The position numbers were made by a program, and so were the translations under genes. Below, in pieces: positions 4,000 through 22,854 of a stretch of 37,762 nt of DNA. Position 1 is the stretch's first letter. Each line of letters begins with the position of its first letter. A model generated the notes under the pieces. That model was not told where the DNA came from and made no database searches. It worked only from the letters and a program-made list of their open reading frames with translations. The DNA lies in IMG/VR virus record IMGVR_UViG_3300013308_000012; one strand, 5' to 3'. This DNA is from a virus.

Positions 4000-5625
4000 C
4001 TAGTAGTCCACTTGAACCTCATGCACGCCCGCATCTGGGCGCCAATCGTCCCGCCGAGCCTCTGTCGGTTTCCCGACTATTCGGCCAATGCGTACAGGGG
4101 TTGAGCTGATGGCGCCGGCACCGGAGTCGATGTAGTCGTCATCCTGGTTGTTCACCGCCGGGTTGAAGTCGCGCATCTGATCCCACACCGGACCGCGCAG
4201 CACATCGACGTGCGCCCACAGGAAGTGCGCCGACAGTGGCGACTCGAAGGCGTCGAGAATTCGCTTCTGTTTGTTGACGGTCGAATGCTCTTCGCCGACC
4301 CCGCACCCGGTGCCCTTCAGCGCCTGCTTTAGGATGGTGGGCACGAAGCCGCCCGGTCCGTTGGTTTCGACGATGACGCGGGGGATCTGGTACTTGATGA
4401 CCAACTCTCGCACCTGGTGCACTTGGCCGCCGATGATCCGGTCTTTGCTGTCGAACTCCGCGATTTCACCGGTCAGCCCTTCGGCAACGTGCCAATACAG
4501 CTGACCTCTGGCGTCGGTCAGCAGAAGCGAGAATGCCGAGGCGTCGGATTTGATCTTGCCCAGCGAGCAGTCCCAGTAAGCGACGGCACCGACGATCTGG
4601 GTTGAGCCCAAGAACATGGCCGCCGCACCGTTGGCGTAGCGCATGGTGGGCTGAACGTCGTAGGGAACAATACGGGCCGGGTCCAAGCGAACCTCCGTGA
4701 CGGGCTTCGAGTGCAGCTGATACTGCGAATCCCATTCGTTGATGGTGCGGGTTTCACGCCGGCGGGTTTCCAGCGTTGCCAAGTCGAAACGCTCTGGCCA
4801 GGCGCTGCCGGCGTAGCAATCGACCAGCGTTCCGGGTGGCGCAAAGAAGGCAATGCCGGTTTTCGTCAGCTGATAATCCTTGCCGGCCACCAGCACCCTG
4901 GCGTGCTTGCCGATGCCGGAGAACACCACGTCCGGCACAAAAGGCACGTCATAGGCGACCAGCCTCGCGTCTTCAATACGGTGCTCTTGCGCGAACATGC
5001 GGATAGTCAGGCAGTCGGCACCCATGCTTTCGATTTCGTCATACAGGCTGTCATGGGTGTGGGGTGTGCCGATGTACAGCTTGGAGCCGCCGGGCACGAG
5101 GATGTGTGTCTGCTCGCCGAGGCGGTAGCGCAGCTTTTCCCGTGCCTCGGGGGTGGCGATGTTGCGCGGAACCTCGACGTCATCGTTCTGGCATTCATCC
5201 GCTCGCGCCGAGGTGACGTTGGAGAGGATGCCCTTGGCGAACATGCTGGCGTTCCGGTGATCCACTGCCCCAACAACCCACCACTGTTCAACCTTGCCGT
5301 GATTGGGTGGCAGCATGTGCCGGGTCAGCGGGTGATTGCGCAGGACGTTCTGGGTGTCACGGCTTGTCTTGTAGGCAGTCGGGTCCGATTCCGACTGGTG
5401 AAGAATCCGAAAGGTGGGGTTTTTGTAGTAAAGCCAGGCGTTGTAGATCGCCAGCAAGGTCGACTTGCCGAAGCCCCGGAAGCAACGCAAAACGGCCAGA
5501 GGACCTTTGGCCTCCAGCCATATCAATGCTTGAACGTGGATAACCGGAACATCCCACCGCATGCGCCGGGCCCACAGCATAAAGAAAATCAGTAGGCTGA
5601 CTTTCTTCTCCGGGTCAGTGGACAT
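4000..5625 (-). CDS. terL: Terminase large subunit (T7 gp19-like)
   Basis: It has a P-loop-like CFRGFGKST and acidic nuclease-type motifs. It sits after the small terminase-like gene. The ATG at 5625 (MSTDPEKK) overlaps the upstream stop. Confidence 0.8.
   Translation of the reverse strand: MSTDPEKKVSLLIFFMLWARRMRWDVPVIHVQALIWLEAKGPLAVLRCFRGFGKSTLLAIYNAWLYYKNPTFRILHQSESDPTAYKTSRDTQNVLRNHPLTRHMLPPNHGKVEQWWVVGAVDHRNASMFAKGILSNVTSARADECQNDDVEVPRNIATPEAREKLRYRLGEQTHILVPGGSKLYIGTPHTHDSLYDEIESMGADCLTIRMFAQEHRIEDARLVAYDVPFVPDVVFSGIGKHARVLVAGKDYQLTKTGIAFFAPPGTLVDCYAGSAWPERFDLATLETRRRETRTINEWDSQYQLHSKPVTEVRLDPARIVPYDVQPTMRYANGAAAMFLGSTQIVGAVAYWDCSLGKIKSDASAFSLLLTDARGQLYWHVAEGLTGEIAEFDSKDRIIGGQVHQVRELVIKYQIPRVIVETNGPGGFVPTILKQALKGTGCGVGEEHSTVNKQKRILDAFESPLSAHFLWAHVDVLRGPVWDQMRDFNPAVNNQDDDYIDSGAGAISSTPVRIGRIVGKPTEARRDDWRPDAGVHEVQVDY
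4063..4082 (-). promoter_or_regulatory. Late-region 20-nt motif, copy E
   Basis: The minus strand reads GAATAGTCGGGAAACCGACA. The copy lies inside the last 30 codons of terL (read in frame as RIVGKPTE), 88 nt upstream of the tail-fibre ATG. Confidence 0.55.
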
Positions 5626-5953
5626 GACCGCCCTTTTGCATGCGGTCGATAATGGCCTGTGCTGCTCGTTCGGCGGCCGCCAGTTCACCATCCAGCTCAT
5701 CGGCGGCATCGCCTGCATCCTTGCCCGGTTTCTGCTTGTTCAGAATTCCGGTGATGTTGACCACCTTGAGCAGCAGGGTCATGGTTGCTGCGGCGTTTTT
5801 CTTGCTCCAATACCGATCGCCCCGCTCCTGCTGGGTGAGGTCTGCCGGATCCTTCGCCGCCCCCGGCCAGTTACCCGGGTCAACCTCGTGGATTACAACC
5901 TCGCCCAGGCTTTCGCTGAGTGCTTGCAGGCGTGCAACTTGATCTTCACGCAT
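5615..5953 (-). CDS. Putative terminase small subunit (call based on position)
   Basis: 112-aa ORF immediately upstream of terL and overlapping it. No motif-level support. Confidence 0.5.
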   Translation of the reverse strand: MREDQVARLQALSESLGEVVIHEVDPGNWPGAAKDPADLTQQERGDRYWSKKNAAATMTLLLKVVNITGILNKQKPGKDAGDAADELDGELAAAERAAQAIIDRMQKGGHVH

Positions 5954-5954
5954 A

Positions 5955-8495
5955 TCACTTCGCTCCTACAGCTGCGCCAAGGTTTGGGCCGCGATCCGGG
6001 GCCGCATCGCCCGGCTCCCACCAATACGATTGTTTGAATTCCTTCTTCGCTCGCTGCTTCATGCGGCGCAGATAACCGGGCGAGAAGTAGTCCTGCAATT
6101 GGTTAAAAATCAGGTGATCGGTGGCGGCCTTCGTGTACCAGAGGTTCGCCGCGGGCAAGTGACTCTTGGCCAGCTTCACCAGCTTGGCGCCGGTCTGGTT
6201 GACCTCGCCCGAGGCGGCGTTGTCCTTCAGCTTGAACACTTGCTCGATATCGCCAGCGATAGGGCCGCCAAGGGCCGCCAGCGGCGAGCTGCCGCCCTGC
6301 GAGTTGTCGGAGAACAGGAAGTCACCGTAGAGCCCCATCGCCCCGCCCTTGAGCATGGAGGCGATGCCAAAGCGCAGGCCCGGCACGCCCAGCGTTCCAT
6401 CGTCGGTGATATTCTTCGGGTCGCGGCCGCTGGCCACTTCGTTTAGCTGAATGGCCATGCCGCCCAGCACGGTGGTGGTGGCAACCAATGCACCGAGATA
6501 GCCGGCCTTTCCCCAGCCCTCTTGGGCCATGCCGCGCCGACCATGCCGCATCACCATGCCGATGGAGAAGCTTTTGAACTGCCAGAACGAGCGCAGCAGT
6601 TCGCCTTTGACGGTGCCGCGCTCGACACCTCCGTGCATCATGGCTTTCTCGCGGGCGCCGGGTTCAATGATCGCCATGTTGGTTTCATCCAGCACGGTGC
6701 CAAGCAGCTTGGTGGCGGCCTGATCCTTGAGCCGCTGCGGGGTTGTGTTGAGCTGGCGAGCAAGCGGCACCAGATCAGCGTCAGCGATGCGGTAGATGCT
6801 GTTCGCGGTCAGCACGGTGTCGCCCACGCCGCGCCAGTCTTCAGGCTGCGCCAGCTTCCACACTGCCCAGTCGGTTTCGGTGACGCCCTGGCCGAGAAGG
6901 CGCTTGCTGTCTGCCGGATCCATTGCTGCAAGGGTCGGGTGCCGGCGAGACATATCGCCGATGGTGTCCATCATGGTGGCGCCGAACGCCCGCTGCGTGC
7001 CGGCGGTCAAGGCGTTGAGGCCAGACGCCTGCATCACCTTGCTGGCGGCGGTCTGTGAGAACTTCGAAACCCGGCCCGATATCTGTTCGGTGCTGCCCAG
7101 GCCGTCAGCGCCCCAGCGGTTGAGGCTGCCGATCAGTTGGTTAAGCCCAAGGCCTGCGCGCTGTGCCATGCGCCGATCACCAGCGTCCGCCGGGTTGAGC
7201 ATGCGCAGTTCATTGGCAAAAACCTTCATCACCGGCATCCCATTCATGGAGGCGGTGAGGCCCAGTGTCCCCTGATCGGTGACCGAAGTAAGCACAGCAG
7301 AACCCAGGCGGCTGGCCACGTTGAGCGCGCGGTAAGTCTCGAAGCCGTTAGCGATAGCAGCCGATGCTGGCGGCTCGCGGGTGCCGGCGACTTCCTCGTA
7401 AAGGTGTTCGATCTTTCGGCGCTGCTTGGCGGTCTTGTCGGTTTTGTTCGGATCGGCCTCGATCGTCACTTTCTGCCCTTCATCCAAGAAGTAACGCATC
7501 TGGTTATTCGGGTTTGGGCCGAGGGTTTCGACCAGGGCGATATCGCGGGATGCGCGATCAATGTGACCGATCAGCAACTCAAGAAGGTTGCGCTCGCCAT
7601 AGGCTTTCTGGGCGGCGATGAACGACTCGGCGTCCTTGTAGTGGATCTGCCGCGACTCGCTCCCACGGTTGGCGCGCATGCCGTTGCCGGCGACATTGCC
7701 GGGCTCCAGCTTGTTGACGCCGCCGGTGGCAAGGGTTGTCCACGCGTGGTTGAGGAAGTCGGTCAACTCGGCGTCATTCATCGGCGAGCCGTCTTCCTTC
7801 ATGTACTTGGCGCGGTTCGCCCACTGCACATGGTCGCTCACCCACTTACCCTGATCCTTGGCCACCTTCACCTGCGAGTGATCGCGCGGCATCGCCCAGT
7901 CATCGAGCAATCCGATATCGCCGCCGGCTCGGTTAAAGCGCTGGCGCAGTTGTTCGGTGGTGTCCTTGAACTGCTTGGCAGCGGTCTTGGCAGCGGCCAC
8001 GCCGGAATCCTCACCGTGCAGCTCGCGAACCAACGCCAGATTGCCGGCCTCGTCCTGGAACAAGCCCATGAACTTGCCTTTGGTCTGGTCGATCACTTCC
8101 AGCATGCGGCTGATCGCATCGTCACGGATGGCGCGGCTTGACGACTCAATCGACTGGATGCCGCTCTTGCCATCGCTGGAAAACGCCAACATTCGATCAA
8201 GCCCTTCAAGAGGCTGATCCGGGAAGCGCTTCATGTAACTGTCGATGCGGTCGTGAGCCAGGATCGTCAAGGCCACGCGCTTTTTCTTGAGCTGCTGCTC
8301 GGATACCAGTTCCTGCGCGGACTTGGTGGCGGCCTCGTTGAGCCGGTCAGCAGCAGTCTTGGATTGCCAAGTGGCGTCGGTCTGGGCTAGCTGGCGCATG
8401 TTGCGGCGCAACCGGTCCTCGATGCCCTGGATTTCTGGCTGCGTGAGGGATCGGCCGATGGCCTGGGTGACGGCTTGAATGCATTCGGCGCGCAT
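5955..8495 (-). CDS. Large internal virion / DNA-ejection protein (T7 gp16-position analogue)
   Basis: 846-aa ORF and the last of four consecutive genes after tail tubular B. It has a hydrophobic Gly/Ala-rich C-terminal segment. The SD GGAGG lies 4 nt upstream of the ATG at 8495. Confidence 0.65.
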   Translation of the reverse strand: MRAECIQAVTQAIGRSLTQPEIQGIEDRLRRNMRQLAQTDATWQSKTAADRLNEAATKSAQELVSEQQLKKKRVALTILAHDRIDSYMKRFPDQPLEGLDRMLAFSSDGKSGIQSIESSSRAIRDDAISRMLEVIDQTKGKFMGLFQDEAGNLALVRELHGEDSGVAAAKTAAKQFKDTTEQLRQRFNRAGGDIGLLDDWAMPRDHSQVKVAKDQGKWVSDHVQWANRAKYMKEDGSPMNDAELTDFLNHAWTTLATGGVNKLEPGNVAGNGMRANRGSESRQIHYKDAESFIAAQKAYGERNLLELLIGHIDRASRDIALVETLGPNPNNQMRYFLDEGQKVTIEADPNKTDKTAKQRRKIEHLYEEVAGTREPPASAAIANGFETYRALNVASRLGSAVLTSVTDQGTLGLTASMNGMPVMKVFANELRMLNPADAGDRRMAQRAGLGLNQLIGSLNRWGADGLGSTEQISGRVSKFSQTAASKVMQASGLNALTAGTQRAFGATMMDTIGDMSRRHPTLAAMDPADSKRLLGQGVTETDWAVWKLAQPEDWRGVGDTVLTANSIYRIADADLVPLARQLNTTPQRLKDQAATKLLGTVLDETNMAIIEPGAREKAMMHGGVERGTVKGELLRSFWQFKSFSIGMVMRHGRRGMAQEGWGKAGYLGALVATTTVLGGMAIQLNEVASGRDPKNITDDGTLGVPGLRFGIASMLKGGAMGLYGDFLFSDNSQGGSSPLAALGGPIAGDIEQVFKLKDNAASGEVNQTGAKLVKLAKSHLPAANLWYTKAATDHLIFNQLQDYFSPGYLRRMKQRAKKEFKQSYWWEPGDAAPDRGPNLGAAVGAK

Positions 8496-8540
8496 GGCCT
8501 GCCTCCTGTGGGAATGGAGGCAAGCCTATTGGGGCGGGGT

Positions 8541-8560
8541 AGACGGTTTCCCGACTATTT
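8541..8560 (-). promoter_or_regulatory. Late-region 20-nt motif, copy D
   Basis: The minus strand reads AAATAGTCGGGAAACCGTCT. It directly overlaps the upstream TAA stop and ends 45 nt upstream of the 8495 start. Confidence 0.55.
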
Positions 8561-10472
8561 AGACGCCTCGTTGCAGGAAGCACGCAGCAGCAGCAGCAAA
8601 TCCTCTGGATTCTTCCTGAGCCCTGACGATATCGGCGTCAGCCTGCGCCATCATTTCCCGAGCAGAGACGGTGATCGGATTGCCGTCAGCGTCCATCGCG
8701 CCGGTGGACAAGCGCATATCGTCCATGCGGGAAAGGATTTCGTCAGCAACCTGAATCTCTGGGTCCGATGCAGGCTTGCCCGCTTCTGATGCAGCACCAG
8801 GGCTTTCTGATGCAGGTTTGGCCGGTTCTGATCCGCTTTTCGGCGCTTTTGATGCAGGGGCTGAGCCTTTCGCTTCCGGTTTTGCTGCCTCTTTCGGAGT
8901 GCCGATATCCAGCAGCTTGGCCTGCAATGTCGGATCGGCGCGTTCGATATCGTCAAGGATGCGGCGGATTTCCTGCTGTGCAACCTGTGCCATAGAAGTG
9001 GGAGGGGTTGCCTCTGATGCCGGCCGCTCAACCTTGAACACTGGCCCAGAGGGTGATACCCATTTGACCTCGCCCTCTACATTCTCAAGCTTTGCGGCAG
9101 GGTTTCGGGTGACGCTGTACCCGCGATCAGCAAGTTTCTCGTAGACGCGAGCCGCCGCTTTGCTCACTTCAACATCTGAAACCAGCGATCGTCCAGATTG
9201 GAAGGCCTGATCTGCCAGCTTTGCATATGCATCAGTGCCGACGCCCTTACCGCTGTAGTCATCGCCGATTGTCGCAGTGGTGACCTTGATACTATCGGGC
9301 GTGACGTTGCCAACGATTCGGCCTATCTCATGTGGCTCAACGCCGGGAAGGTGCGACTGATCAGGTGCCCCCTTATCCTTGATAACGTAACGAAAAGAAT
9401 TTTCGTTGTTGTCGATTTCCAACCCCGCCTCGGTGGCCTTGCCCTTCCCTCCTGGAACTGCCGAGGAAATCTCGGTGGTTCGCATGAACTCGGCCGAATG
9501 GATGCTATCCGGCAGCACCACCGGTTCGCCCCGGGTGAGCTGGGCAATGGCAGTCTGGATTGCGTCCTGGTGCGCAATGGCTGATTTGGGGCTGATCGGC
9601 GCACCTGGTGCGGTGTCGATATCGGCATGCTGGTAAGTACGTTCGGCCAGCGCCGCATCGACCTGCTCAGTGGTTGGGCGACGAAACCCGGCCCGGCCAA
9701 TACCGAAGAACGCCGCACCTAGAATCACATCCGTAGCAATGGCTGTGCCGTCCATGGCGTGATACTGGGCGGCCTGCGTGTGATAACCACCACTCTCCAG
9801 CAGCGCAGCCGTGGCGCCACGCCCAGCCATGCCCAGCCCTACGTTCGCTCCCATAGCGATTGCAGCGTCACCAAGCAGCGGCTTGACGAAGCGCGCCGCC
9901 GGCAACACCACGCCCAGCCCGGTAGTAAGCGCATCGATCCCGCCCTTGGCATAGGCCGTCGTCTCATCGATCCCTTCGGCAACTGCCGTCTGCTTGCTGG
10001 CGTAACCGGTAGGCCCGCCAGCAGCCACTGCGCCGCCCACTGGACCGGCGAGCATCGTACCCACCACGGTGCGCGGAAGGATGGCAGCGGCTTCGCTCAG
10101 TATCTGCCCAACCACACCAACCTCGGTAGGGTCAGGGCGCAGCAATTCAACCGCCTGAGCTGTGTCCTTACCAATGATATCCGCCCGGCGCTCGGTGTCG
10201 GTGTTGATCTGCTGAATCTGCTGCTCGGCGTCCTGGCCATCCAGCACCATCCCGCTGAGCCCGAGCCCCATCGCCTGATCGGCGCCAGCCGCCTGAACCA
10301 CCAGCGACTTGGCCGTATTCACAGCCTCGATGCCGCCGCGCACCAAGCCCTGACCGAACGCGTCAGAAACCCCGGCAAATGCACCAGGGGCCGGCTTGTC
10401 CTCAGTTCGTCCAAGTCGCTGATCCTGGCTCGCGGCTTCGTTATCTTCGACCAATCCGTCTAACCAGCTCAT
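8559..10472 (-). CDS. Internal virion protein with a Gly/Ala-rich hydrophobic N-terminal region and a central GNAT-like segment
   Basis: 637-aa ORF coupled to its neighbour by an ATGA overlap. Residues about 350-485 contain ...IGDDYSGKGVGTDAYAKLADQAFQSG...AARVYEKLADRGYSV, which resembles GNAT motif A/B. Confidence 0.65.
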   Translation of the reverse strand: MSWLDGLVEDNEAASQDQRLGRTEDKPAPGAFAGVSDAFGQGLVRGGIEAVNTAKSLVVQAAGADQAMGLGLSGMVLDGQDAEQQIQQINTDTERRADIIGKDTAQAVELLRPDPTEVGVVGQILSEAAAILPRTVVGTMLAGPVGGAVAAGGPTGYASKQTAVAEGIDETTAYAKGGIDALTTGLGVVLPAARFVKPLLGDAAIAMGANVGLGMAGRGATAALLESGGYHTQAAQYHAMDGTAIATDVILGAAFFGIGRAGFRRPTTEQVDAALAERTYQHADIDTAPGAPISPKSAIAHQDAIQTAIAQLTRGEPVVLPDSIHSAEFMRTTEISSAVPGGKGKATEAGLEIDNNENSFRYVIKDKGAPDQSHLPGVEPHEIGRIVGNVTPDSIKVTTATIGDDYSGKGVGTDAYAKLADQAFQSGRSLVSDVEVSKAAARVYEKLADRGYSVTRNPAAKLENVEGEVKWVSPSGPVFKVERPASEATPPTSMAQVAQQEIRRILDDIERADPTLQAKLLDIGTPKEAAKPEAKGSAPASKAPKSGSEPAKPASESPGAASEAGKPASDPEIQVADEILSRMDDMRLSTGAMDADGNPITVSAREMMAQADADIVRAQEESRGFAAAAACFLQRGV

Positions 10473-12490
10473 TTGACTTTCACCACCATGGGTTCTTTGG
10501 TCGTCGGGTCGATCTGCACCCGACCCGCGTTCAGCAGGTAATACGAGCCTTCCTTACCAGGGACCGGCGACAGCGGCATATCTTCAAGCTGTCCGACCGG
10601 GAATTTGGTGCGGGCGGCCAGGCCTTCCAGCTCGATATCCACGACCTTATCGAACATCTTGTCAGTCATGCCGTAGGGCTTGATGACCTTCGCCCCGCCG
10701 CGCTCACCCACGCCGCCGGTGGCCATGTTCACGGCCTGCTCAGCCAGCTTGCTGTCAATCTCTGGTGACGCCCCGTCGTGTGTTATGCCTTTTGGCCCGG
10801 ACATGCCCGCGTACAAGGACTTGAAGGCCAGATAGGCCTGCTCGCGCTGAGGCGTGCCAGGAGTGAGCGAATTGCCTACATGCTCATCAAAGGCCTCGCG
10901 AAACATGGCGTCCTTTGGCATTGGGGTGGATTTGTCGCTAAGCACCTTGGCGCCTGACAGCAAAGTCTGCGGCACGTTGGTGCCGTCCTCGCCCTTGAGT
11001 CCGCGGAACTGCGCCATGCCGGCCAGAACGGTGATGGGCTGGTCGGCAGCCAATGGCTTGATGGCGGCCGCGTAGTCGGCGCCGGAAGGCGATGATGCAG
11101 CGATGGCGCCAAAGATCTGCAGCTTGGTGCCGTCATCTGCCTGGGCCAGTACCGACGTGAGCATCTGTTGCTCTTCAGGTTTCCACGGGCTGCGCGCCAC
11201 CTCAGGACCGTAGGCCTTGCGCATGGAGTTCACCACATCGAAGCGGTGCGCGATCTGCTCGCCCAGCTTGGCCTGGCCTTCTGGGGTGGTGATGCCGGAC
11301 ACGTCCAGCGGTTCAACGTCTTGCCCGGTGCGCATGGCGTTGAAGGTCAGCGGGTTTTCACGCAGCAGCTTGGTGTTGTTGTCGATGGCGGTTTGCAGGC
11401 GCTGGACGTTGGCCTGCTCGGTGACGCTCGCACCCTTCTGGGCCATCTGCACCCGCATCTGATCAACGTACTGCTGTTGAACGGCGATGGGCTGGCGCAA
11501 CAGCGTCTGCACCTGATTCATTTCGCCTATGCGGGTGTTGTACTCGCCGGCGGCAGACGTGCCAGAAAGTCCGGCTTTCCACCGTTGCTGATCCGCCGGC
11601 GTCGGCGGGATGCCAGTTGCGGCCTGGCGATCCATCTGGGTAAGGATCCGCTCGGCTTTCACTTCGCGCATTTCCGCCTGACGCTGCTGGTGTTCCTTCA
11701 CCTGGAAGATGCGGCCGCTCACCGTGTTGAGCAGCTGGGTGCGCTTCTCCGGGTCCAGCTTCTTGGCGTAAAACCCGTCCTCGGCAGTGAGGTCGTGCTC
11801 AACCTTCTGCAAGCTGCCTAGGCTTTCGCGGGCTTCGATGACTCGCTGGGTGGCGTGCGTGCTCCAGTTGCTGTCCTTGAATTCCTGCTTTTTGCTGGTC
11901 CACGCCTCGCCAAAGGCCAGGTGCCCGGCAATGTCGATATCCTCGGCATCCATGCGCGCATTGATCTGCTCGACGTTGGCGCCGGGCATTGCAGCGTCCT
12001 TGCCAAGCATATCCATGCGGGAAGTCAGATCGCTTTGCGCGGCGACAATACGGCCCTTGGCGGAAGCCTCGCGCACCTTGTCCAGGCCGCCGAGCTGCAT
12101 GCGCTTGAGCGAGTTGCCGATTTCACCCTGCTGGGCCTCGTCGAGCCCAGGCGTGTCCAGCGGCTCGAGCTTCGATACGGCCGTGTTGTAGGCTTCCTCC
12201 GACTTTTCATAGCTGAGCTTGCCTGTGCGCATCTGCTCATCAAGGTCGGTGGCGATGGTCTTGATTTGCGATTCACGATCGATCAGCGCGTTACTGGCTT
12301 TCACCCTGGACAGGGCTTTGTCCTGCTGGTTTACCTGATCCAGGACGTTTAGCGCCGTGTTCTGGATGGTACTGGCGGCCTGCTGCGCCACTTGATCCTG
12401 TGCACGCGTGTCCACGGGCATGACGCGGTTTTGCGCAACATCCTGCTGCACTCGGGTGGTAGCGAAGTTGCCCAGCGGAATCTGTGCCAT
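10469..12490 (-). CDS. Internal virion protein (T7 gp15-position analogue)
   Basis: 673-aa ORF, Gln/Ala-rich, coupled to both neighbours by overlapping start and stop codons. Confidence 0.6.
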   Translation of the reverse strand: MAQIPLGNFATTRVQQDVAQNRVMPVDTRAQDQVAQQAASTIQNTALNVLDQVNQQDKALSRVKASNALIDRESQIKTIATDLDEQMRTGKLSYEKSEEAYNTAVSKLEPLDTPGLDEAQQGEIGNSLKRMQLGGLDKVREASAKGRIVAAQSDLTSRMDMLGKDAAMPGANVEQINARMDAEDIDIAGHLAFGEAWTSKKQEFKDSNWSTHATQRVIEARESLGSLQKVEHDLTAEDGFYAKKLDPEKRTQLLNTVSGRIFQVKEHQQRQAEMREVKAERILTQMDRQAATGIPPTPADQQRWKAGLSGTSAAGEYNTRIGEMNQVQTLLRQPIAVQQQYVDQMRVQMAQKGASVTEQANVQRLQTAIDNNTKLLRENPLTFNAMRTGQDVEPLDVSGITTPEGQAKLGEQIAHRFDVVNSMRKAYGPEVARSPWKPEEQQMLTSVLAQADDGTKLQIFGAIAASSPSGADYAAAIKPLAADQPITVLAGMAQFRGLKGEDGTNVPQTLLSGAKVLSDKSTPMPKDAMFREAFDEHVGNSLTPGTPQREQAYLAFKSLYAGMSGPKGITHDGASPEIDSKLAEQAVNMATGGVGERGGAKVIKPYGMTDKMFDKVVDIELEGLAARTKFPVGQLEDMPLSPVPGKEGSYYLLNAGRVQIDPTTKEPMVVKVK

Positions 12491-13008: not shown

Positions 13009-13010
13009 GA

Positions 13011-16214: not shown

Positions 16215-16243
16215 ATAAAAAGACCGGGGCGCGCGGCCCCGGT
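16215..16243 (-). terminator. Intrinsic terminator after the capsid and small capsid-associated genes
   Basis: The minus strand reads ACCGGGGC-CGCGC-GCCCCGGT followed by CTTTTTATCT. It lies between the stop at 16272 and the start at 16201. Confidence 0.7.
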
Positions 16244-16271: not shown

Positions 16272-16733
16272 TTAGTTTTGGCCGGCGTACTGCGCAACCA
16301 ACGTGATGACCTGACCAGCCAGCAGAGCAGCACCGGCTACAACAGAGCGCAGTTCGCTGGTGTCAGTGGCATCACCCGGCTTGGTGACGCTGACCTCGAA
16401 CAGCCCGCCGTTGGCAAACTGGGCCTCAGCCGCAGCACTGCCAGCAGTTGCCACCGAAGTGGCTGCCATATAGCGAGCAGGCGTGACCGCATCCCCGAGA
16501 TTGAGGGTCGAAGATGCTGCGCCAACGCTGCAATACACCTTCGTGCCCGGCATGAGGCGAGCACCGAGAGGTAGGTAGCCCCACGAAATAACGTCTGCGA
16601 TCTGCTGGCCACCCACCGGTACGGTGTAGGTGCTGATGAAGGTCTGGATGTCAGCGCCTTGCACGTTCGGCTTGACCAGGGTTTGCGGGAAAGCCACTCG
16701 GGCCGCCGCGAGACTTGCGAGAACTGTTGCCAT
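16272..16733 (-). CDS. Small structural protein next to the capsid gene (candidate decoration/cement protein)
   Basis: 153-aa ORF with AGGAG 6 nt upstream of the ATG. It lies immediately downstream of the major capsid gene and upstream of the terminator. Function is inferred from position only. Confidence 0.45.
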   Translation of the reverse strand: MATVLASLAAARVAFPQTLVKPNVQGADIQTFISTYTVPVGGQQIADVISWGYLPLGARLMPGTKVYCSVGAASSTLNLGDAVTPARYMAATSVATAGSAAAEAQFANGGLFEVSVTKPGDATDTSELRSVVAGAALLAGQVITLVAQYAGQN

Positions 16734-16778
16734 GATTGAGCTCCTGAACTATGGGGAAGAAGGCGAAGCGAACGACCC

Positions 16779-17642
16779 TTACGGATCGTTGGCCGCGATT
16801 TCCACAACCTTCTCTTCTTCCACCCGCACAGCGCCGATGGACATTTTTGCGTAGATGCGGACGTTGAAGCCCTTGCCCGCATCCTTGCCGACTTCGGTCA
16901 TGATCTCGGCACCTTTGCCCAGCGTGACGCCGGACTTGGCGTAGGCGTAAGCGAAGCGGGTCGCACCAGACTTCGGCAGGCGCTCGGACGGAATCCAGTT
17001 GAAGCCCATCCACTTGCCCTTGAGCGTGCCGCTCTGGAGCATCTGCGCAGCCATGAAGTCAGCCGAGGTCAGGGTGGTGTCAGCCAGGATGTCGTTCAGC
17101 GCCTGGGCGTGATAGACCATGAACAGCTCTTCGCCGGCTTCCTCGTCCGCTTCGTTCAGGCGGAACATTTTTTTCGCCTGGATGATCTTGGTCTTGGTCA
17201 AGCCGGTACCGCCCACCGCAATTTTCTGCGAAGCCGGCAGGATGATGCCGCCAGTGGTGGCGCGGGAGCTGCTGCCCAATGCGCTGATGATCACGTCATC
17301 CTTGGCGCGGTTCAGCGAGGCAATCATGGCCTTGACGTACTCCGACGTCGGGTCAACCAACATGCGGATCTTGTCCTGGTCGTCGACCATGTCGCCATCT
17401 TCCCAGTCGTAGAGGTCCACGAAACGGGTGCTGTGCGGTTGATCATTGATCGGGGTGTCGCCGTGGCGCTGGGTGCGACGGGTCGCAGTGCGCTGGCCGA
17501 GACGGTTGACCGACTTCGACATGCCGACGATGTTCGGCTCGATCGTTACAGTCGGCTCCAGGCGGGAGGTGGCTTGTTGTGCGAGGTGCATGAAGTTGTC
17601 AGCGAACTGCTGGACAAACGCCTCGGTGATTTGCTGGGACAT
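16779..17642 (-). CDS. Major capsid protein
   Basis: The ATG at 17642 (MSQQITEAFVQQFADNF...) is preceded by GGAGTG. The 287-aa product follows the scaffold gene in the order portal, scaffold, capsid. Confidence 0.75.
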   Translation of the reverse strand: MSQQITEAFVQQFADNFMHLAQQATSRLEPTVTIEPNIVGMSKSVNRLGQRTATRRTQRHGDTPINDQPHSTRFVDLYDWEDGDMVDDQDKIRMLVDPTSEYVKAMIASLNRAKDDVIISALGSSSRATTGGIILPASQKIAVGGTGLTKTKIIQAKKMFRLNEADEEAGEELFMVYHAQALNDILADTTLTSADFMAAQMLQSGTLKGKWMGFNWIPSERLPKSGATRFAYAYAKSGVTLGKGAEIMTEVGKDAGKGFNVRIYAKMSIGAVRVEEEKVVEIAANDP

Positions 17643-17810
17643 ACGATGCACTCCAATGCAGATAAGGGGGTTGCCTGCCGGGTGTCCGCATCGCGGGCCG
17701 GGATTCCTGGCGTGCATCGGCTTTGCTGCGCCTTGGGGCTTTCCGGGTATCTGCGTGCCACCGCAGGCCGGCCCATTGCTGGGATGCCTGCGATGTTTGT
17801 GCATGGAGGG

Positions 17811-17830
17811 TGTCGGTTTCCCGACTATTT
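17811..17830 (-). promoter_or_regulatory. Late-region 20-nt motif, copy C
   Basis: The minus strand reads AAATAGTCGGGAAACCGACA. It starts 10 nt after the scaffold stop and ends 168 nt upstream of the capsid ATG. Confidence 0.55.
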
Positions 17831-17840
17831 GCAGCTGGGA

Positions 17841-18716
17841 TCAGCCAAGGCGGGATTGAGGCTTGTTGTACTTACGGTCGTACATGGCATCGAGTTCAGC
17901 CTTGAGCCCGGCGCGCTTCGGATCGTGCTGTGGCATTGCGGCGAGCTGAGTGCGCAGCTCCTGTGCCTTGATCGCAAAATCAGCCTCATTGACCTGGCCG
18001 CCGTTGATGGCGCTGTCTTCCTTCAGCTCCTTGCCGATGTTGGCCGTGAAGGCGATGAAGTCCGGGTCGTTGCCGTACTTGGCCTGAAGGGTGTCGAAGT
18101 TGCCAGGCTTACCCGGCTCGCTGGCGAAGGCCTCGGCGGCGCGGAATGACGCCCGAACATTGGCTTTCATGGCCTGCTCATCAGGCCACACGGCCTTGAG
18201 CGTGGCCGTGCAGTCCTGCGCAGTCAGCTGTGCGCCGCCCTCGATCAGACCGGGTGCCGCCTTCATGTATTCGCCGATCACGTACTGCACCTGGTCGTTG
18301 GTCAGGCCTTTGGCGTGAGCCCCTTTCAGGAACGACTGGGTGCCCTCATCAGCCTTGAACTCATCCCAGTTGAAGCCCTCGACGCCTTCCAGCTTGACCG
18401 TGTACTCATCAGCGCTCTTGGGTGGCGCATCACCGGAGCCCATGCGGGTTTCAAGGTGCTTGTAGGACTCGGCCAGCTTGCGCGAAGACGCTTCAAGGTC
18501 GAGGCTGCCGTCCTCTTTGTTGGTCCGGTACTTCTCGGGAATGAAGTCGGTAGCCGTGTTGCCGGTGCCAAGCACGGACGGTGCAGGAGCTGGCGCCGGT
18601 GCCGGTGCCGGAGTAGGTGCAGGCGTCGGAGCTCCACCGCCTGGCTGGCCTTCTGGTGCAGCCTCGGCCATCAACATAAGACCCATGAACTGGGAAAAAC
18701 TATTATTCAAACGCAT
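17841..18716 (-). CDS. Scaffolding protein
   Basis: 291-aa ORF between portal and capsid. It is acidic and helical with an N-terminal (PA)n linker. The exact start is uncertain; alternative ATGs lie at 18686 and 18671. Confidence 0.65.
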   Translation of the reverse strand: MRLNNSFSQFMGLMLMAEAAPEGQPGGGAPTPAPTPAPAPAPAPAPSVLGTGNTATDFIPEKYRTNKEDGSLDLEASSRKLAESYKHLETRMGSGDAPPKSADEYTVKLEGVEGFNWDEFKADEGTQSFLKGAHAKGLTNDQVQYVIGEYMKAAPGLIEGGAQLTAQDCTATLKAVWPDEQAMKANVRASFRAAEAFASEPGKPGNFDTLQAKYGNDPDFIAFTANIGKELKEDSAINGGQVNEADFAIKAQELRTQLAAMPQHDPKRAGLKAELDAMYDRKYNKPQSRLG

Positions 18717-18933
18717 TGGTATCTACTCCGTTTGCTCTGTTGATTTGGGAAACGATGAACTCCAGCACGCGGCGCTGGCCGTCTCGCTGGTAGGTTTCTA
18801 GGACCGCATCAATCCCGCCCTTGACCACGGCGGGACGTGCGAAGTGGTTGGTCAGCGCATCGAGGATCAACCGGCCTTCGTGGTGGTCCTCGAACACGCG
18901 CTTGTACATCGCTGCATCGACTTCGATTGCCAT
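18703..18933 (-). CDS. Hypothetical protein between portal and scaffold
   Basis: 76-aa ORF whose ATG overlaps the portal stop by 1 nt. Confidence 0.55.
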   Translation of the reverse strand: MAIEVDAAMYKRVFEDHHEGRLILDALTNHFARPAVVKGGIDAVLETYQRDGQRRVLEFIVSQINRANGVDTNAFE

Positions 18934-20528
18934 TACGCTGCGGCCCCCTGTTGTTTGAGTGCGGCCTCACTGGCCTGCTGTTGAATCATTTGCTGCTGGG
19001 CCTGTTCCTGCGCCTGCTGGTTGGCTGCGGCACGGTCCTCGCGGATCTTGTCGCGGTCTGCCTTGCTGCGGATGACCGACGACGGAACACCCAGCGCCTC
19101 GCCCTTGAAGCGCTGCGCCTCGTCCATGTCGATGTTGTCCATGACAGTCGGGTCGGCCTGAGCAACGATCAGCGCGCCTTCAATGAACTGATCGATCGCG
19201 GTGACTTCCTCCAGCTTCTGCGAGCGAGCCAGCGGCGACAGGTAGCGCACGGTGAAGTTGCGGCCGGCCAACGACTCAGGTGCAGTGCCCAGCACGCCAG
19301 CGCGGTACGCAATGCCGAAACACCGCTCGATCATCGGTTGCAGGTACTCGGTTTGCAGGCGGCCATAGACCGGGCCGAGCAACTGACGGATCAGGTTCAC
19401 CCGCACGTGCACCTCAGTTGCCGTCATCGCCGGGCCGTCCTGCGCCTGGAGCTGATCCGCCATCAGGATCTTGCGGATGGAGCCCTGAAGCCGTGCGATC
19501 TTGGTCTCGGCGTACTGGAAGTTTGAGCCGCTTTGCAGGGGCTTCATGCTGTCCACGCTGTTGGCCACGATGATCTTTCGAGGCCCAACCTTGACGGTGC
19601 GCGGGTTGAGGACGCCATCGTCTTCGGCAATCCACATCCCAGCGATGGCCAAGTCACCGGCTGCCAGATCCATTCGGCACAGTTCGTTCAGGGTGCGGGC
19701 GTCTGGCAGTGCGTCGAACACCGGGCCAACCGCGTACACGCTGTCCGGGATCATCATCCAGCGCGGCACGACGACAGGCATTTCGTGATAGCCCGACTCG
19801 CTCACCAGGTGCTTGGCTGCCACCTCGACCTTGCACGAAGCGATCGGCATGTTCTTGGCCAGTCGAGCGCCGACCATGTACGTGCTGCGTGGGTAGATCG
19901 CGTGAACGAACTGCACCAGCTCCTGCGGTTTGTCTTTCGCCAGCTTTCGCGTAGTTTCGCTCAGGTTGTCTTCGCCAAACTCGTTGACCGCCTGCTCTGC
20001 CGTGAGCTTGTACTCGCGATACACGGTGTCGATCTTGCCGCCAGCCTTGGACGCCGAGGCGTACACGCTCGCAATCGGCCACAAGTCGAAGGTGAAGCCG
20101 CCCTTCTCCATGTCCTGATCGATGTACAGGGCAAACCACCCAGCGCATACAACGTCAATCAACCCCTCGAAGGCGGCCGCGTCGAAGTTGGATGCGTGGA
20201 TGTTCTGCCAGAGGATGTCGGCTGAGTCGTCCAGCCACCGGCGTTCCTCGTCGGTCTCCTGCCCCACGTCCATGCCGAACCACAGCGAGTTCGCCGGGGT
20301 CAGGCCGGACATGATGCCGGACGACAGAATGCGGGCCGCGTCCGTGGTGGTCCCGTCGATCATCCTGGCCTTGCGCATCTGCGCCTCCATGGCCGTGATC
20401 TGCTCAGTGCAGAAGCCGCTACCCCGAATCGGGTAGCTGTGGTCGAAGCAATCGCGCCAGACCGACTCATGCGGCGAGCGGAGTGACTTCAAGGTGCTCA
20501 GCGTTTTGGCGATCTGGGCTGCGTTCAT
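18933..20528 (-). CDS. Portal (head-to-tail connector) protein, T7 gp8-like
   Basis: 531 aa, close in size to T7 gp8. It has a Gln-rich acidic C-terminus and heads the morphogenesis block. Confidence 0.75.
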   Translation of the reverse strand: MNAAQIAKTLSTLKSLRSPHESVWRDCFDHSYPIRGSGFCTEQITAMEAQMRKARMIDGTTTDAARILSSGIMSGLTPANSLWFGMDVGQETDEERRWLDDSADILWQNIHASNFDAAAFEGLIDVVCAGWFALYIDQDMEKGGFTFDLWPIASVYASASKAGGKIDTVYREYKLTAEQAVNEFGEDNLSETTRKLAKDKPQELVQFVHAIYPRSTYMVGARLAKNMPIASCKVEVAAKHLVSESGYHEMPVVVPRWMMIPDSVYAVGPVFDALPDARTLNELCRMDLAAGDLAIAGMWIAEDDGVLNPRTVKVGPRKIIVANSVDSMKPLQSGSNFQYAETKIARLQGSIRKILMADQLQAQDGPAMTATEVHVRVNLIRQLLGPVYGRLQTEYLQPMIERCFGIAYRAGVLGTAPESLAGRNFTVRYLSPLARSQKLEEVTAIDQFIEGALIVAQADPTVMDNIDMDEAQRFKGEALGVPSSVIRSKADRDKIREDRAAANQQAQEQAQQQMIQQQASEAALKQQGAAA

Positions 20529-20764
20529 GCTCCGAGTGTCCTTTTGCCTTGAGCCATTACAGTTTCAGTGGCCGCACCAGCCCCGCCACCAGGCGCCACG
20601 CCGCGAGCGCCACCACTGGACAGCAGGCTGCTCTGCGACTTGCGCACCTTGCGGGCTGCGGTTTCGGAGTTGGCCTTCTGCGTGGCGATATCGGCAGCCT
20701 TCTGCGCTTCGATCTGCGGGTCAGGCGCGGCAACGACAGCAGGTTTCTTTGGCTTGCTCGACAT
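20525..20764 (-). CDS. Hypothetical small basic protein
   Basis: 79-aa ORF with an ATGA-type overlap onto the portal start. Confidence 0.5.
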   Translation of the reverse strand: MSSKPKKPAVVAAPDPQIEAQKAADIATQKANSETAARKVRKSQSSLLSSGGARGVAPGGGAGAATETVMAQGKRTLGA

Positions 20765-20768
20765 GGTG

Positions 20769-21167
20769 TTACTCCTTGACTGGTGGCTCAGGGCACAGCC
20801 AGCCGTCCGGGGTCATGACGGGTTGCTTGAGCTTGACCGGGTCGATGTCGGCGGTTGCCTGAGCCTTGGCCTGTGCCTGGGCGGTAACTTCTCCCTTGAC
20901 CTCAACGAAGGGCTCGCCGCCGGCGTTCATGCGATCGACCTCGGCAAGGATCGACACCTTGTCGCCAACGAAGTCGCCCACACGCTGGGCCTCGGCGTCA
21001 TTGGTCACGACGCACCAGCGTCCGCCGGCAATGTGCTTGGCCACGTACAGCACAGGGGCTGGATCAGCCTTCGGGGGATAGCCAGCACCTGTGGTACCAG
21101 CGAGCGGCGTCATGGTGGCGAGAGGGTCGCCGGGGGATTGGGTCTTCAGGTCTTCAGGAGCTGGCAT
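20769..21167 (-). CDS. Hypothetical protein, first gene after the lysis cassette
   Basis: The ATG at 21167 (MPAPEDLK) has GAGG about 9 nt upstream. The ORF track extends to 21197. Confidence 0.55.
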   Translation of the reverse strand: MPAPEDLKTQSPGDPLATMTPLAGTTGAGYPPKADPAPVLYVAKHIAGGRWCVVTNDAEAQRVGDFVGDKVSILAEVDRMNAGGEPFVEVKGEVTAQAQAKAQATADIDPVKLKQPVMTPDGWLCPEPPVKE

Positions 21168-21223
21168 GGTGCTGGCCTCGGTGTGGTTGTTGATCAACGA
21201 GGGCCAGCATCAAGGCGGTGGGC

Positions 21224-21243
21224 TGTCGGGTTCCCGACTATTT
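21224..21243 (-). promoter_or_regulatory. Late-region 20-nt motif, copy B
   Basis: The minus strand reads AAATAGTCGGGAACCCGACA. Its TAG is the Rz stop codon. It ends 56 nt upstream of the 21167 start. Confidence 0.55.
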
Positions 21244-21687
21244 GCGAGGGATGCAGCTGGTGTTCACGTAGTCCTGAAGGCCACTCAAGGCAATGATGGC
21301 CTCGTCTCCGTCGTTGGTGATGGCGACAATATCTTGAGCAGCCGCGGGGTCAATGTCGGCTCTCGCTTCTGCATCATCCACGCCGGTGGGGCTGGCGGTG
21401 GTTCGCACTGCGGGGCAACGGGCTGGGACTGACAGCCGCTGAGCGCCAGTGCCGACGCGAGCAAGAAGGTCTTTGTTCTGGGCCTGAGCATTGGTCAGCT
21501 CCTGGGTGTGTTGGGTGTCGAGGTCGGCCAGCAGGCGCTGGGTGGTGCGGCGGGAATCGGCAGCGTTCTCCAGCGTGGTGATGGTGCCCTCGGCAGCGGT
21601 CAGGCTGGTGCTGACGTGATCGATACGCCACAGAGCCAGCAGCAGGCCAATGGCGAGCGCAGTGCAGATGCCGGCAAGGATCCTCAC
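21238..21687 (-). CDS. Rz: Rz-like inner-membrane spanin
   Basis: It has an N-terminal TM segment (MRILAGICTALAIGLLLALW) and a coiled-coil body. An ATGA overlap couples it to the endolysin stop. Confidence 0.75.
   Translation of the reverse strand: MRILAGICTALAIGLLLALWRIDHVSTSLTAAEGTITTLENAADSRRTTQRLLADLDTQHTQELTNAQAQNKDLLARVGTGAQRLSVPARCPAVRTTASPTGVDDAEARADIDPAAAQDIVAITNDGDEAIIALSGLQDYVNTSCIPRK
21285..21491 (-). CDS. Rz1: Rz1-like outer-membrane lipoprotein spanin, embedded in Rz in another frame
   Basis: It has a lipobox (LALSGC) after a signal sequence and a Pro-rich mature part. It lies entirely within the Rz coordinates. Confidence 0.7.
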   Translation of the reverse strand: MLRPRTKTFLLASALALSGCQSQPVAPQCEPPPAPPAWMMQKREPTLTPRLLKILSPSPTTETRPSLP

Positions 21688-22103
21688 GGCACATCCCGGA
21701 AAAACACGTGGTTACCGATGGTGACGGTCTTCTTAGCCCCCACGGTCCACTTGGGTGGAGTCTTCATGCTCTTGGCGTAGTAGTGAGTTGAACCGCCAGT
21801 TGGGTCAGGCGTGCCCCCATCAACAACAAGCTTTGCCACCGCCAAGACCATGGCGTACTGGTTGTAGGGGATCTGCTTGGCGCCGATGAGGTAAGAATAG
21901 TTCGGGTCGTTCTTGTTCCAGCAGCTGAACTGATACGGGGCCTTGCATACACCGGCATAGCCCTCACCCCACCACGACCGCGGGTTGCTGTCGCTCACTC
22001 GGTTGCGGATGGTCCAGGCCACTGCGACCTGCCCCGCCGGACCTTCTCCGCGAGCCTCACCCCACAGCGTACGGGCCAGTACATCGATATCGTTGGTAGC
22101 CAT
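21684..22103 (-). CDS. Endolysin, SleB/Hydrolase_2-type cell-wall hydrolase
   Basis: The ATG at 22103 gives MATNDIDVLARTLWGEARGEG...AVAWTIRNR...YQFSCW..., the characteristic SleB-family pattern. An ATGA overlap couples it to the upstream gene. Confidence 0.8.
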   Translation of the reverse strand: MATNDIDVLARTLWGEARGEGPAGQVAVAWTIRNRVSDSNPRSWWGEGYAGVCKAPYQFSCWNKNDPNYSYLIGAKQIPYNQYAMVLAVAKLVVDGGTPDPTGGSTHYYAKSMKTPPKWTVGAKKTVTIGNHVFFRDVP

Positions 22104-22387
22104 CAATCCATCCTCAGAATGCGCGCCACGTTGCCGCGAGCCCGGTACACCAGCACCGCCAGGACGAGCAGAACGATCAGCAGGTAGGGGGAAACAGCGG
22201 GTGTTGGCTTGGCAAACAGTGCCGCCAGCAGGATCGAAAGCCACTCACAGCCTGTTGCAGCGGCCAGTGCGTAGGCCAGCCATGACACACCAGCACGGTA
22301 GCGGGCACCTTCACGGCGATAGATGGCGATTCGAATGCAAATGGCGCCACAGAGGGCGCCAGCGATGAGAGTCCATGGATCAACCAT
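22103..22387 (-). CDS. Second holin-like membrane protein (three predicted TM segments)
   Basis: 94 aa, hydrophobic (MVDPWTLIAGALCGAICIRIAIY...). It overlaps the first holin's end by 8 nt. Confidence 0.65.
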   Translation of the reverse strand: MVDPWTLIAGALCGAICIRIAIYRREGARYRAGVSWLAYALAAATGCEWLSILLAALFAKPTPAVSPYLLIVLLVLAVLVYRARGNVARILRMD

Positions 22388-22757
22388 TGCGGCTACCTCC
22401 AAATCTGTCGGCGACCCATTGCAGCCAGCCGGGCATTTTGCCGCCACCGAACCACACCAACAGGCTGATGCAGACAGTGACGATGAGCAGTGCACCGAAG
22501 AACGCGACAAGGCCGGAAGTCCTGGCCCACTCACGACCAATAACCTCGTTGGCGACGTAGTAGCCAGCCACCCATGAAGCGATGAAGTAGCCCAGTCGGG
22601 CCAGTGGCGTGAGGTCCTTTGCGAACACCACGAAGAACATTGCACCAGCGAACGCACCCACCACCGCGTTCACGTCAACACCAGGCCAGAAGCTCACAGC
22701 GGTAACGCCGATGATCCCTGCGCCGGCCAACACTGCGCCGCTGCTTGGCTCTGCCAT
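22380..22757 (-). CDS. Holin-like membrane protein (three to four predicted TM segments)
   Basis: The ATG at 22757 (MAEPSSGAVLAGAGIIGV...) has GAGG 7 nt upstream. It is the first gene of the lysis cassette. Confidence 0.65.
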   Translation of the reverse strand: MAEPSSGAVLAGAGIIGVTAVSFWPGVDVNAVVGAFAGAMFFVVFAKDLTPLARLGYFIASWVAGYYVANEVIGREWARTSGLVAFFGALLIVTVCISLLVWFGGGKMPGWLQWVADRFGGSRNG

Positions 22758-22767
22758 TTGATACCTC

Positions 22768-22798
22768 GGAAAGAAAGACCCCGCACAGTGGCGGGGTC
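22768..22798 (-). terminator. Intrinsic terminator immediately upstream of the holin gene (tR'-like position)
   Basis: The minus strand reads GACCCCGC-CACTGT-GCGGGGTC followed by TTTCTTTCC. It lies between motif copy A and the holin SD. Confidence 0.65.
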
Positions 22799-22834
22799 GG
22801 GTTACTCGACTAGGCAAGGATCAGCGGGCTTGGG

Positions 22835-22854
22835 TGTCGGATTCCCGACTATTT
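22835..22854 (-). promoter_or_regulatory. Late-region 20-nt motif, copy A
   Basis: The minus strand reads AAATAGTCGGGAATCCGACA. Its TAG is the stop of the 22849..23049 ORF. It ends 77 nt upstream of the holin ATG, with the terminator in between. Confidence 0.55.

Follow-up and report, generated by a model that had tools for sequence, protein, structure and literature searches.

This study provides evidence from sequence comparison that a 20-nucleotide (nt) motif, repeated five times in the late region of a 37,762-nt viral DNA (IMG/VR record IMGVR_UViG_3300013308_000012; this whole stretch is referred to here as the window), probably marks a set of activator-dependent late promoters, which would be used by the RNA polymerase (RNAP) of the host together with p90, a helix-turn-helix (HTH) protein of 90 amino acids (aa) encoded by the phage. 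The window is a temperate Pseudomonas podovirus whose early region is lambda-like and whose virion module is T7-like, and it encodes no phage RNAP. A late-promoter or activator-site role with host RNAP, and the 90-aa HTH protein as the regulator, had been proposed in a preliminary description of the window, and this proposal is supported by a -10-like hexamer at a fixed distance from the motif, by terminators lying upstream of the motif in relatives, and by the linkage of the motif to p90. A regulatory device of a kind not yet described, which had been considered in the same place, is not needed. Temperate podoviruses with T7-like virion genes and no phage RNAP are common in Pseudomonas, Yersinia, Burkholderia, and marine bacteria, and to our knowledge the activation of their late genes has not been worked out.

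The motif and its -10-like element

The window was scanned with the pattern AAATAGTCGGGAANCCGACA, allowing up to three mismatches, and 100 dinucleotide-preserving shuffles were used as the control. Five matches were obtained, all on the minus strand, and none was obtained in the shuffles; the five co-oriented 20-mers noticed previously were thus recovered at the same coordinates. Copies A, B, and C (Table 1) match the pattern exactly, copy E has one mismatch, and copy D has two. No sixth copy scored above the threshold used when the whole window was searched with a weight matrix of the motif and its downstream -10 hexamer, derived from relatives. The consensus of the element is (A/G)ATAGTCGGGA(A/T)NCCGAC, and the dyad described for it, GTCGG-N4-CCGAC, is real, with arms of 5 base pairs (bp).

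The relation of the copies to the neighboring stop codons had been described for copies A, B, and D, together with the in-frame position of copy E, and was borne out by the table of open reading frames (ORFs) and by the sequence. Both copy A and copy B provide, with their TAG, the stop codon of the ORF before them, which is a variable 66-aa ORF (22849-23049) and the Rz spanin ORF (21238-21687), respectively. Copy D shares two bases with the TAA stop of the ORF at 8559-10472, and copy E lies in frame within terL (4000-5718); copy C is located 10 nt past the stop of the ORF at 17841-18716. From the end of the motif to the next ATG, we measured 77 nt for copy A (holin, 22757), 56 nt for copy B (21167), 168 nt for copy C (capsid, 17642), and 45 nt for copy D (8495), in agreement with the spacing to the block heads claimed before. 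Copy E is followed after 28 nt by an ATG inside terL (4034), and the likely tail-fibre start past the terL stop comes after about 88 nt. The identities given to the blocks also agree with the PHROG matches, which are holin, portal/head block, major capsid, the 846-aa virion protein, terL, and tail fibre. As for the C-rich run that was said to follow the motif, it is present downstream of the motif, but its conservation among the copies is weak.

The flanks of the motif were analyzed in dereplicated copies of relatives (n = 181), and they point to a promoter. A hexamer NANNNT lies exactly 12 bp downstream of the motif, at +32 to +37 when numbered from the first motif base, and A+33 and T+37 occur together in 172 of the 181 copies (95%), while A-N3-T was present in 13% or less at every other offset between +20 and +59. 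These two bases appear as two sharp peaks in the alignment of the downstream flanks; upstream of the motif, the alignment of the dereplicated copies contains no conservation and no -35-like hexamer. An invariant A at the second position and T at the sixth position of the hexamer are the signature of a sigma-70-type -10 element. In that register, the motif occupies -44 to -25, the center of the dyad falls at about -32.5, and GGAANC stands in place of the -35 hexamer, the bipartite promoter measuring 38 bp in all. The A-rich left flank AAATA (-44 to -40) would then lie at the position of a proximal UP-element subsite. Among the copies, the hexamers at +32 to +37 include GATCCT, GATGCT, GACTCT, TAGGCT, AAACAT, GACGAT, and GACCAT, and divergent relatives carry the near-consensus hexamers GATAAT, GATACT, and GATCAT at the same place. 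The -10 hexamers, as well as the terminators found after two of the promoters, are features that were absent from the preliminary description. Promoters of the sigma-54, sigma-28, and extracytoplasmic function (ECF) classes were judged by eye and rejected: there is no GG-N10-GC, the spacing does not suit TAAA-N15-GCCGATAA, and A-N3-T is the sigma-70-type signature.

A further line of evidence comes from the terminators upstream of the motif. In about 10 dereplicated copies, the motif is preceded by a canonical intrinsic terminator whose end lies 9-19 nt away; 12 such cases were flagged, and two of these appear spurious. Examples occur in the relatives L013, L038, L080, L097, L111, L316, L322, and L324. 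A terminator followed by a promoter is the normal boundary between transcription units. A promoter at this place therefore makes sense, while an RNA element directly behind a terminator would stay untranscribed.

Copy E points in the same direction. Compared with the terL of the Yersinia phage YeP5 (which ends in ...GAIGQTAVDY), the terL of the window contains a 26-aa insertion, RIGRIVGKPTEARRDDWRPDAGVHEVQ, just before the final VDY (region 4003-4080, minus strand). Copy E, the hexamer GACGAT, and the predicted start all fall within this insertion. The location of promoter E inside an insertion that is missing from YeP5 argues for selection at the DNA level; as far as the alignment goes, the terL coding sequence appears to have been extended to house the tail-fibre promoter.

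The same layout was found in relatives. Viral contigs were scanned by exact pattern, and at least 120 stretches were listed; among these matches, most of the viral contigs with the motif are 35-38 kb long, and the spacing of the copies is as in the window. A motif scan of related phages, which the preliminary description had suggested, placed several co-oriented copies at the heads of late units and none in the early regions. A collection of genomes (596 Gb) was also scanned with the pattern, which has 15 specified bases, and gave at least 124 matches, with about 1100 expected by chance. Because only 15 bases are specified in 596 Gb, most of these matches are due to chance. Among the matches listed, those having the AAATAG flank and the downstream hexamer belong to Pseudomonas (including P. 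lundensis and P. kilonensis), with one in Burkholderia dolosa, and such family-type matches occur as two or three per Pseudomonas prophage. The listed matches outside the prophages of Pseudomonas and Burkholderia have neither the flank nor the -10, and their count is as chance predicts. Literature searches found no description of the motif or of related systems. The system of motif and p90 is compact and, as far as the matches listed go, strictly phage-specific. Apart from this, Rubrobacter assemblies (L146, L150, L160, L177, L178, L180, L190, and L195) share a stretch, (T/C)TATAGTCGGGAGTCCGACTtctgaaccttgtgatccctggcg, without the phage flank and without a -10, which is unrelated to the phage motif.

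Table 1. Coordinates of the promoter elements, the candidate regulator, and the intrinsic terminators in the window
Feature	Position	Strand	Remarks
Copy A upstream element (AAATAGTCGGGAATCCGACA)	22835..22854	-	About -44 to -25 of the putative lysis-cassette promoter P_A
Copy B upstream element	21224..21243	-	Putative P_B; head block: 132-aa and 79-aa genes, portal, scaffold
Copy C upstream element	17811..17830	-	Putative P_C; major capsid gene
Copy D upstream element, right arm CCGTC	8541..8560	-	Putative P_D; 846-aa virion protein, terS, terL
Copy E upstream element, translated RIVGKPT in terL	4063..4082	-	Putative P_E; tail fibre and 480-aa SGNH esterase
-10-like hexamer GATCCT of P_A	22817..22822	-	Predicted start about 22810
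-10-like hexamer GATGCT of P_B	21206..21211	-	Predicted start about 21199
-10-like hexamer AAACAT of P_C	17793..17798	-	Predicted start about 17786
-10-like hexamer TAGGCT of P_D	8523..8528	-	Predicted start about 8516
-10-like hexamer GACGAT of P_E, inside terL	4045..4050	-	Predicted start about 4038
p90, 90-aa XRE/Cro-type HTH protein with Trp-rich C-terminal tail (DWWAYH)	23060..23332	-	Candidate late activator
Intrinsic terminator GACCCCGC-loop-GCGGGGTC and T run, -17.1 kcal/mol	22777..22798	-	Before the holin ATG (22757)
Intrinsic terminator, -16.8 kcal/mol	16223..16243	-	After the capsid and 153-aa genes

The candidate regulator p90 and its surroundings

Of the conserved genes in the early-right operon, p90 comes last, and it takes the position of lambda Q, after NinB/NinG and before the holin. 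Homologues of p90 were used to retrieve 46 loci, without reference to the motif. Motif copies in 44 of them are found only downstream of p90 and on the same strand, the first one 0-970 bp past the p90 stop, and the two loci without a linked motif have foreign or unrelated DNA after p90. No same-strand copy is present in the 10 kb upstream of p90, where a single weak match with two mismatches was seen on the other strand. In several relatives, there is no ORF between p90 and the motif, and the TAG of the motif is the stop codon of p90 itself.

The predicted recognition-helix segment, STLLGWKQGAEP, is nearly invariant across the p90 homologues, in accordance with the invariant GTCGGGA core of the motif, and the motif is unchanged across homologues down to about 40% identity. 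The AlphaFold model of p90 is confident (pLDDT 83.7) and resembles XRE/Cro-type HTH proteins, namely CapH-N, HipB, SinR, C.BclI, C.AhdI, and C.EcoT38IS, including DNA-binding dimers. By sequence, p90 matched no Pfam or NCBIfam family, including no Q family and not the Pfam family Mor, and only marginal HTH matches were obtained against solved structures. The named homologues are all listed as 'hypothetical protein' and come from Pseudomonas. The family comprises 975 clusters at 50% identity (278 at E <= 1e-10), and literature searches found no description of it.

The motif and p90 also occur together in YeP5. Its p90 homologue, which is 48% identical, is located at 17540-17776 after the primase gene, in a slot that holds an annotated Q in the syntenic phage APSE (PMC8579659). 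YeP5 has four variant motifs, TTTTAGTCGGGAAACCGAAC, ATTTGGTCGGGAAACCGAAC, CGATAGTCAGGAAACCGAAC, and AAATGGTCAGGATTCCGACC, each of which is accompanied by NANNNT at +32 to +37, and the motif of its capsid gene is preceded by a terminator.

In the mechanism proposed here, p90 would be made at the end of the early-right operon, would bind, probably as a dimer, to the element that replaces the -35 hexamer, and would recruit or position the host sigma-70 RNAP at a minimal -10, of which only A at -11 and T at -7 are kept, the two bases most important to sigma-70. Without a -35 and with a weak -10, such a promoter would be inactive alone. The five units would be switched on together: P_A would serve the lysis cassette, P_B the head genes through scaffold, P_C the capsid gene and the 153-aa gene as far as the terminator at 16243-16223, with the tail genes being reached by read-through, P_D the 846-aa protein, terS, and terL, and P_E the tail fibre and the esterase. 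The terminators after the lysis promoter and the capsid gene would set the relative expression by partial read-through.

Motif copies were also observed in other settings. In another type of Pseudomonas prophage, an orphan motif with a proper -10 (L088, 12211-12460) precedes a 61-aa ORF by about 35 nt, and this ORF is located between a DNA-methyltransferase block and the integrase; the same type is represented by L007, L012, L025, L033, L075, L090, L108, L166, and L168. In L120 (1802-1905; also L055, L067, L076, and L098), the motif with the hexamer GATGAT belongs to the tail region of a lambda-like siphovirus, where it separates the homologues of tail genes I and J. Downstream of it come about 60 nt that form a unit closed by a strong terminator, and then a small membrane-protein ORF with its own terminator. 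This unit looks like a moron or a small RNA under the same late promoter. The Burkholderia phage KL4 (L330) has a 30%-identical p90-like gene directly before terS and is without the motif. It contains three copies of the 15-mer ACGCACGATTCTGCG (42247, 39072, and 25763, minus strand), two of which lie just upstream of late gene blocks, and these 15-mers may represent the same design with another specificity.

Concerning the remaining genes of the window, the PHROG matches on the minus strand gave the order NinG, a 95-aa ORF, p90, the 66-aa ORF, and the lysis genes (holin genes, endolysin, and spanin), followed by two small head genes, portal, scaffold, major capsid, tail tube A/B, and internal virion proteins, and at the end by the 846-aa virion protein, terS, terL, tail fibre, and the SGNH esterase. 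The early region contains CI, Cro, CII, replication genes, NinB, NinG, ERF and YqaJ recombination genes, and integrase. No RNAP gene is present in the window, the early ORFs being at most about 410 aa long and the large late ORFs being virion proteins without a Pfam RNAP domain, so the earlier statement that no such gene is visible was correct. The capsid protein is about 40% identical to those of the Yersinia phages YeP4-6 and of HTVC010P-type pelagiphages, and a nucleotide search of the late region against sequenced phages gave no match. The product of the last late gene (205-1647, minus strand), downstream of the tail fibre, has 480 aa and a GDSL/SGNH esterase domain at its C terminus, and it may be a surface-polysaccharide deacetylase; the tail fibre also carries a lipase/esterase-like segment. 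Finally, the slot between p90 and copy A (22849-23049, minus strand) holds unrelated ORFs of 66, 95, 129, or 142 aa beside identical p90 genes, is empty in several relatives, and appears to be a variable cargo slot.

Terminators, leaders, and alternative readings

In the predicted P_A transcript, the terminator at 22798-22777 covers about +12 to +33. In 51 of the 181 copies (the holin class), a terminator begins about 45-55 nt past the motif start; it comes in at least three unrelated sequence versions, and it is kept despite a second terminator upstream of the motif in L097, L253, and L292. It may simply attenuate the expression of the lysis genes in the window. The 34 distinct capsid units examined all have a terminator behind the capsid region, and beyond it the motif is absent for about 9 kb. 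The tail and internal-virion genes of the window (from about 16200 to 8559, 7.7 kb) likewise have no motif promoter of their own and would therefore be expressed by read-through of the capsid terminator. A terminator ahead of promoterless tail genes resembles T-phi of T7, where partial termination is combined with read-through. The layout at the lysis promoter, which is exactly that of pR' and tR' in lambda, suggests that p90, or RNAP started at the motif, may resist termination; such resistance is rather doubtful. The conserved terminators after the holin promoter and the capsid gene may nevertheless point to an extra antitermination role.

Several points weigh against the reading of the motifs as p90-dependent promoters. 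The motif copies, the fixed -10, the lack of RNA covariation, the terminators, and the linkage to p90 are observations, whereas the start sites, the binding of p90, the activation, and the attenuator role of the terminators are what we infer. The first position of the hexamer is G, not T, in about 70% of the copies, which is unusual for sigma-70. A second NANNNT (AATAGT) lies within the motif in Pseudomonas, so that another register is conceivable; since it fails in two of the four YeP5 copies, it is a minor rival only. The presence of a terminator about 6-12 nt past the predicted lysis start is odd for a plain activator model. PHROG 16553, to which p90 belongs, is labelled 'transcriptional repressor', a label for which we found no experimental support. 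In addition, no p90 gene was seen within 9-12 kb of the single orphan copies (upstream in the L088 type).

An alternative suggested by the terminators is that the motif is a Q-like loading site, at each copy of which p90 or another phage factor would join RNAP and make it terminator-resistant, with read-through of 22798-22777 into the lysis genes and of 16243-16223 into the tail genes; this could be combined with activation. In a stricter version, the AATAGT in the motif would be the real -10 and the downstream NANNNT a sigma-dependent pause element. Such a role would agree with the lambda-Q position of p90 and the annotated Q in the APSE slot, with the holin-class terminators kept beside upstream ones, with the terminators that end all capsid units ahead of tail genes without a promoter, and with the strong hairpins of both terminators of the window. 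However, there are five sites, not one, p90 matches no Q family (Pfam, NCBIfam) and has a plain 90-aa XRE fold, and the AATAGT register meets the difficulty in YeP5 described above. Partial termination alone can also explain the terminators, as at T-phi of T7, and promoters without a -35 and with a weak -10 are not the strong constitutive promoters of Q systems. We consider a Q-like loading site to be unlikely.

It is also improbable that p90 is a dual regulator, which would initiate at the -35-less promoters and then, on RNAP or by modifying it, act as a processive antiterminator with five loading sites. If true, this would explain the strong terminator 6-35 nt into the lysis transcript and the position of all tail genes, with no promoter of their own, behind a terminator, and the orphan copies would be promoters answering the p90 of a co-resident or incoming phage.

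There is little probability that the motif is an operator over ordinary promoters, bound by p90 as a repressor or by a host factor. The PHROG label would fit, a site centered at about -32 would block RNAP on an otherwise functional promoter, and the motif is unchanged across the p90 homologues mentioned above. On the other hand, a repressor of the late genes that is made at the end of the early operon, just before those genes, fits a lytic programme poorly, and the motif travels with p90 from Pseudomonas to Yersinia. Among the genome matches listed, family-type copies lie in prophage clusters and not across host chromosomes. Moreover, the absence of a -35 hexamer under the site would leave little promoter activity to repress.

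The preliminary description had also raised an RNA element, either boxB-like or a processing site, and we consider it very improbable that the motif acts in the late transcripts as a 5-bp hairpin with a GAAN loop, whether boxB-like, as a processing site, or as a protein-binding operator. The hairpin folds alone (-7.7 kcal/mol), and every copy has the sense orientation of the late genes and lies within or close to intergenic sequence. Nevertheless, the arm changes counted in dereplicated copies (n = 185) are disruptive without exception: 30 copies have a change in one arm of the dyad (GTCAG, CCGTC, CCGCA, CCGAA, or CCGCC), and none is compensated. The right arm is degenerate in every copy of some lineages (CCGCA, CCGAA), which leaves 3-4 pairs, while GTCGGGA is invariant. 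The third (A/T) and fourth (A, C, T, G) bases of the loop vary (GAAA, GAAC, GATT, GAAT, GATC), and the loop is not of the GNRA type because its fourth base is free. The energy of the isolated hairpin, with a fold z-score of -1.8, is unremarkable. Rfam gave no match at the gathering score in the whole window, and a tRNA scan was negative as well. Terminators are present directly upstream of about 10 copies. The asymmetric flank ATA and the -10 at a fixed distance, both conserved, are not explained by a hairpin. The earlier remark that the uncompensated break in copy D favors a DNA signal was right, and boxB/nut-type and processing hairpins were rejected for lack of covariation, for the degenerate right arms, and for the upstream terminators. 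Judging from the pattern of substitutions, the motif acts as a DNA element, not as an RNA hairpin.

Finally, a conserved 20-nt dyad repeat and a T7-like virion module could suggest a REP-like repeat, a signal for packaging or recombination, or the promoter of a single-subunit RNAP. These readings are highly improbable, as the copies occur only in late regions and always co-oriented with the genes, the listed genome matches outside Pseudomonas and Burkholderia are without flank or -10 at a chance number, and the RNAP that a T7-type promoter would need is not encoded.

Several observations were made on the leaders of the predicted transcripts. The leader of about 145 nt from promoter C to the capsid ATG (17643-17786, minus strand) is highly conserved in relatives and contains several small hairpins, e.g., CCCAGCAATGGG and CTGCGGTGGCACGCAG. 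A degenerate partial motif, TAGTCGAGTAACCCGAC, lies at 22796-22812 (minus strand), just past the -10 of copy A, where it overlaps the predicted start and the foot of the terminator, and it is kept in relatives with the same terminator version. At copies D and B (8495-8530 and 21165-21210, minus strand), the Shine-Dalgarno (SD) sequence of the following gene forms base pairs with a 5' arm that overlaps the -10/start region. The leader RNAs were folded sequence by sequence, and the read-through RNA at D and B gave -24.4 and -22 kcal/mol, respectively, compared with -7.6 and -5.9 kcal/mol for the RNA from the predicted start. The SD pairing at leaders of the D/B type was found in 37 of 38 relatives, in most of which the SD is still weakly paired in the short RNA, and this pairing may couple translation to local initiation.

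Significance and comparison with known systems

The motif and p90 form a complete candidate regulon, with a bipartite promoter, five units with predicted starts, and a candidate activator from a large uncharacterized HTH family. The pair of promoter and p90 could be used as an orthogonal expression switch for Pseudomonas, and the motif marks the starts of late operons in prophages, which would improve their annotation.

Several phage systems are comparable with the proposed promoters. The late promoters of Mu (Plys, PI, PP, and Pmom, activated by C) and Pm (activated by Mor) also stand at the heads of functional blocks and have a -10 and no -35, with a dyad site for a small HTH activator of the phage that is made earlier in the cycle. 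They differ in that the Mu sites are centered farther upstream, at about -43.5, the activators C and Mor are members of a different family (Pfam Mor, which p90 does not match), and the motif is unrelated. In the cII promoters of lambda (pRE, pI, and paQ), the site likewise covers the -35 region, the -35 and -10 are poor, and one small protein serves several promoters; however, cII is a tetramer that binds direct repeats (TTGC-N6-TTGC) and acts in the lysogeny decision, not on late genes, and the phage of the window has a separate cII-like gene. The middle promoters of T4 are similar in having a phage element at about -30 (the MotA box) in place of the -35 together with a sigma-70 -10, but there two proteins, MotA and AsiA, remodel sigma region 4, no homologue of either is evident here, and the motif is unrelated.

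The arrangement of Q, pR', and tR' in lambda is alike in that the regulator gene lies directly upstream of its site, which is followed by a terminator and by the holin as the first late gene. In lambda, however, one strong constitutive promoter serves a long single operon, whereas the window has five weak promoters without a -35, and p90 is no relative of Q. The Ogr and Delta systems of P2 and P4 share about four late promoters, one dyad element, and a protein of about 70-90 aa, and copies of the promoter occur on satellites, which may parallel the orphan motif copies; Ogr is a zinc-finger protein with a site at about -55, and the sequence is unrelated. The C proteins of restriction-modification systems are small XRE dimers that activate from operators close to the -35, and C.BclI, C.AhdI, and C.EcoT38IS resemble the model of p90. 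This likeness is at the level of the fold only (13-20% identity, Foldseek E of about 0.1), and p90 differs in its extra Trp-rich tail, its context, and its target.

By analogy, the system would work like the promoters of Mu C/Mor, P2 Ogr, lambda cII, and T4 MotA, and it is not a member of these families because its regulator and its site are unrelated to theirs. Features that define Q systems, nut/boxB sites, and T7-type promoters are missing from it, and, going by the genome matches listed, it is probably no REP element. While the kind of system is a familiar one, we found no earlier description of the p90 regulator family or of its site.

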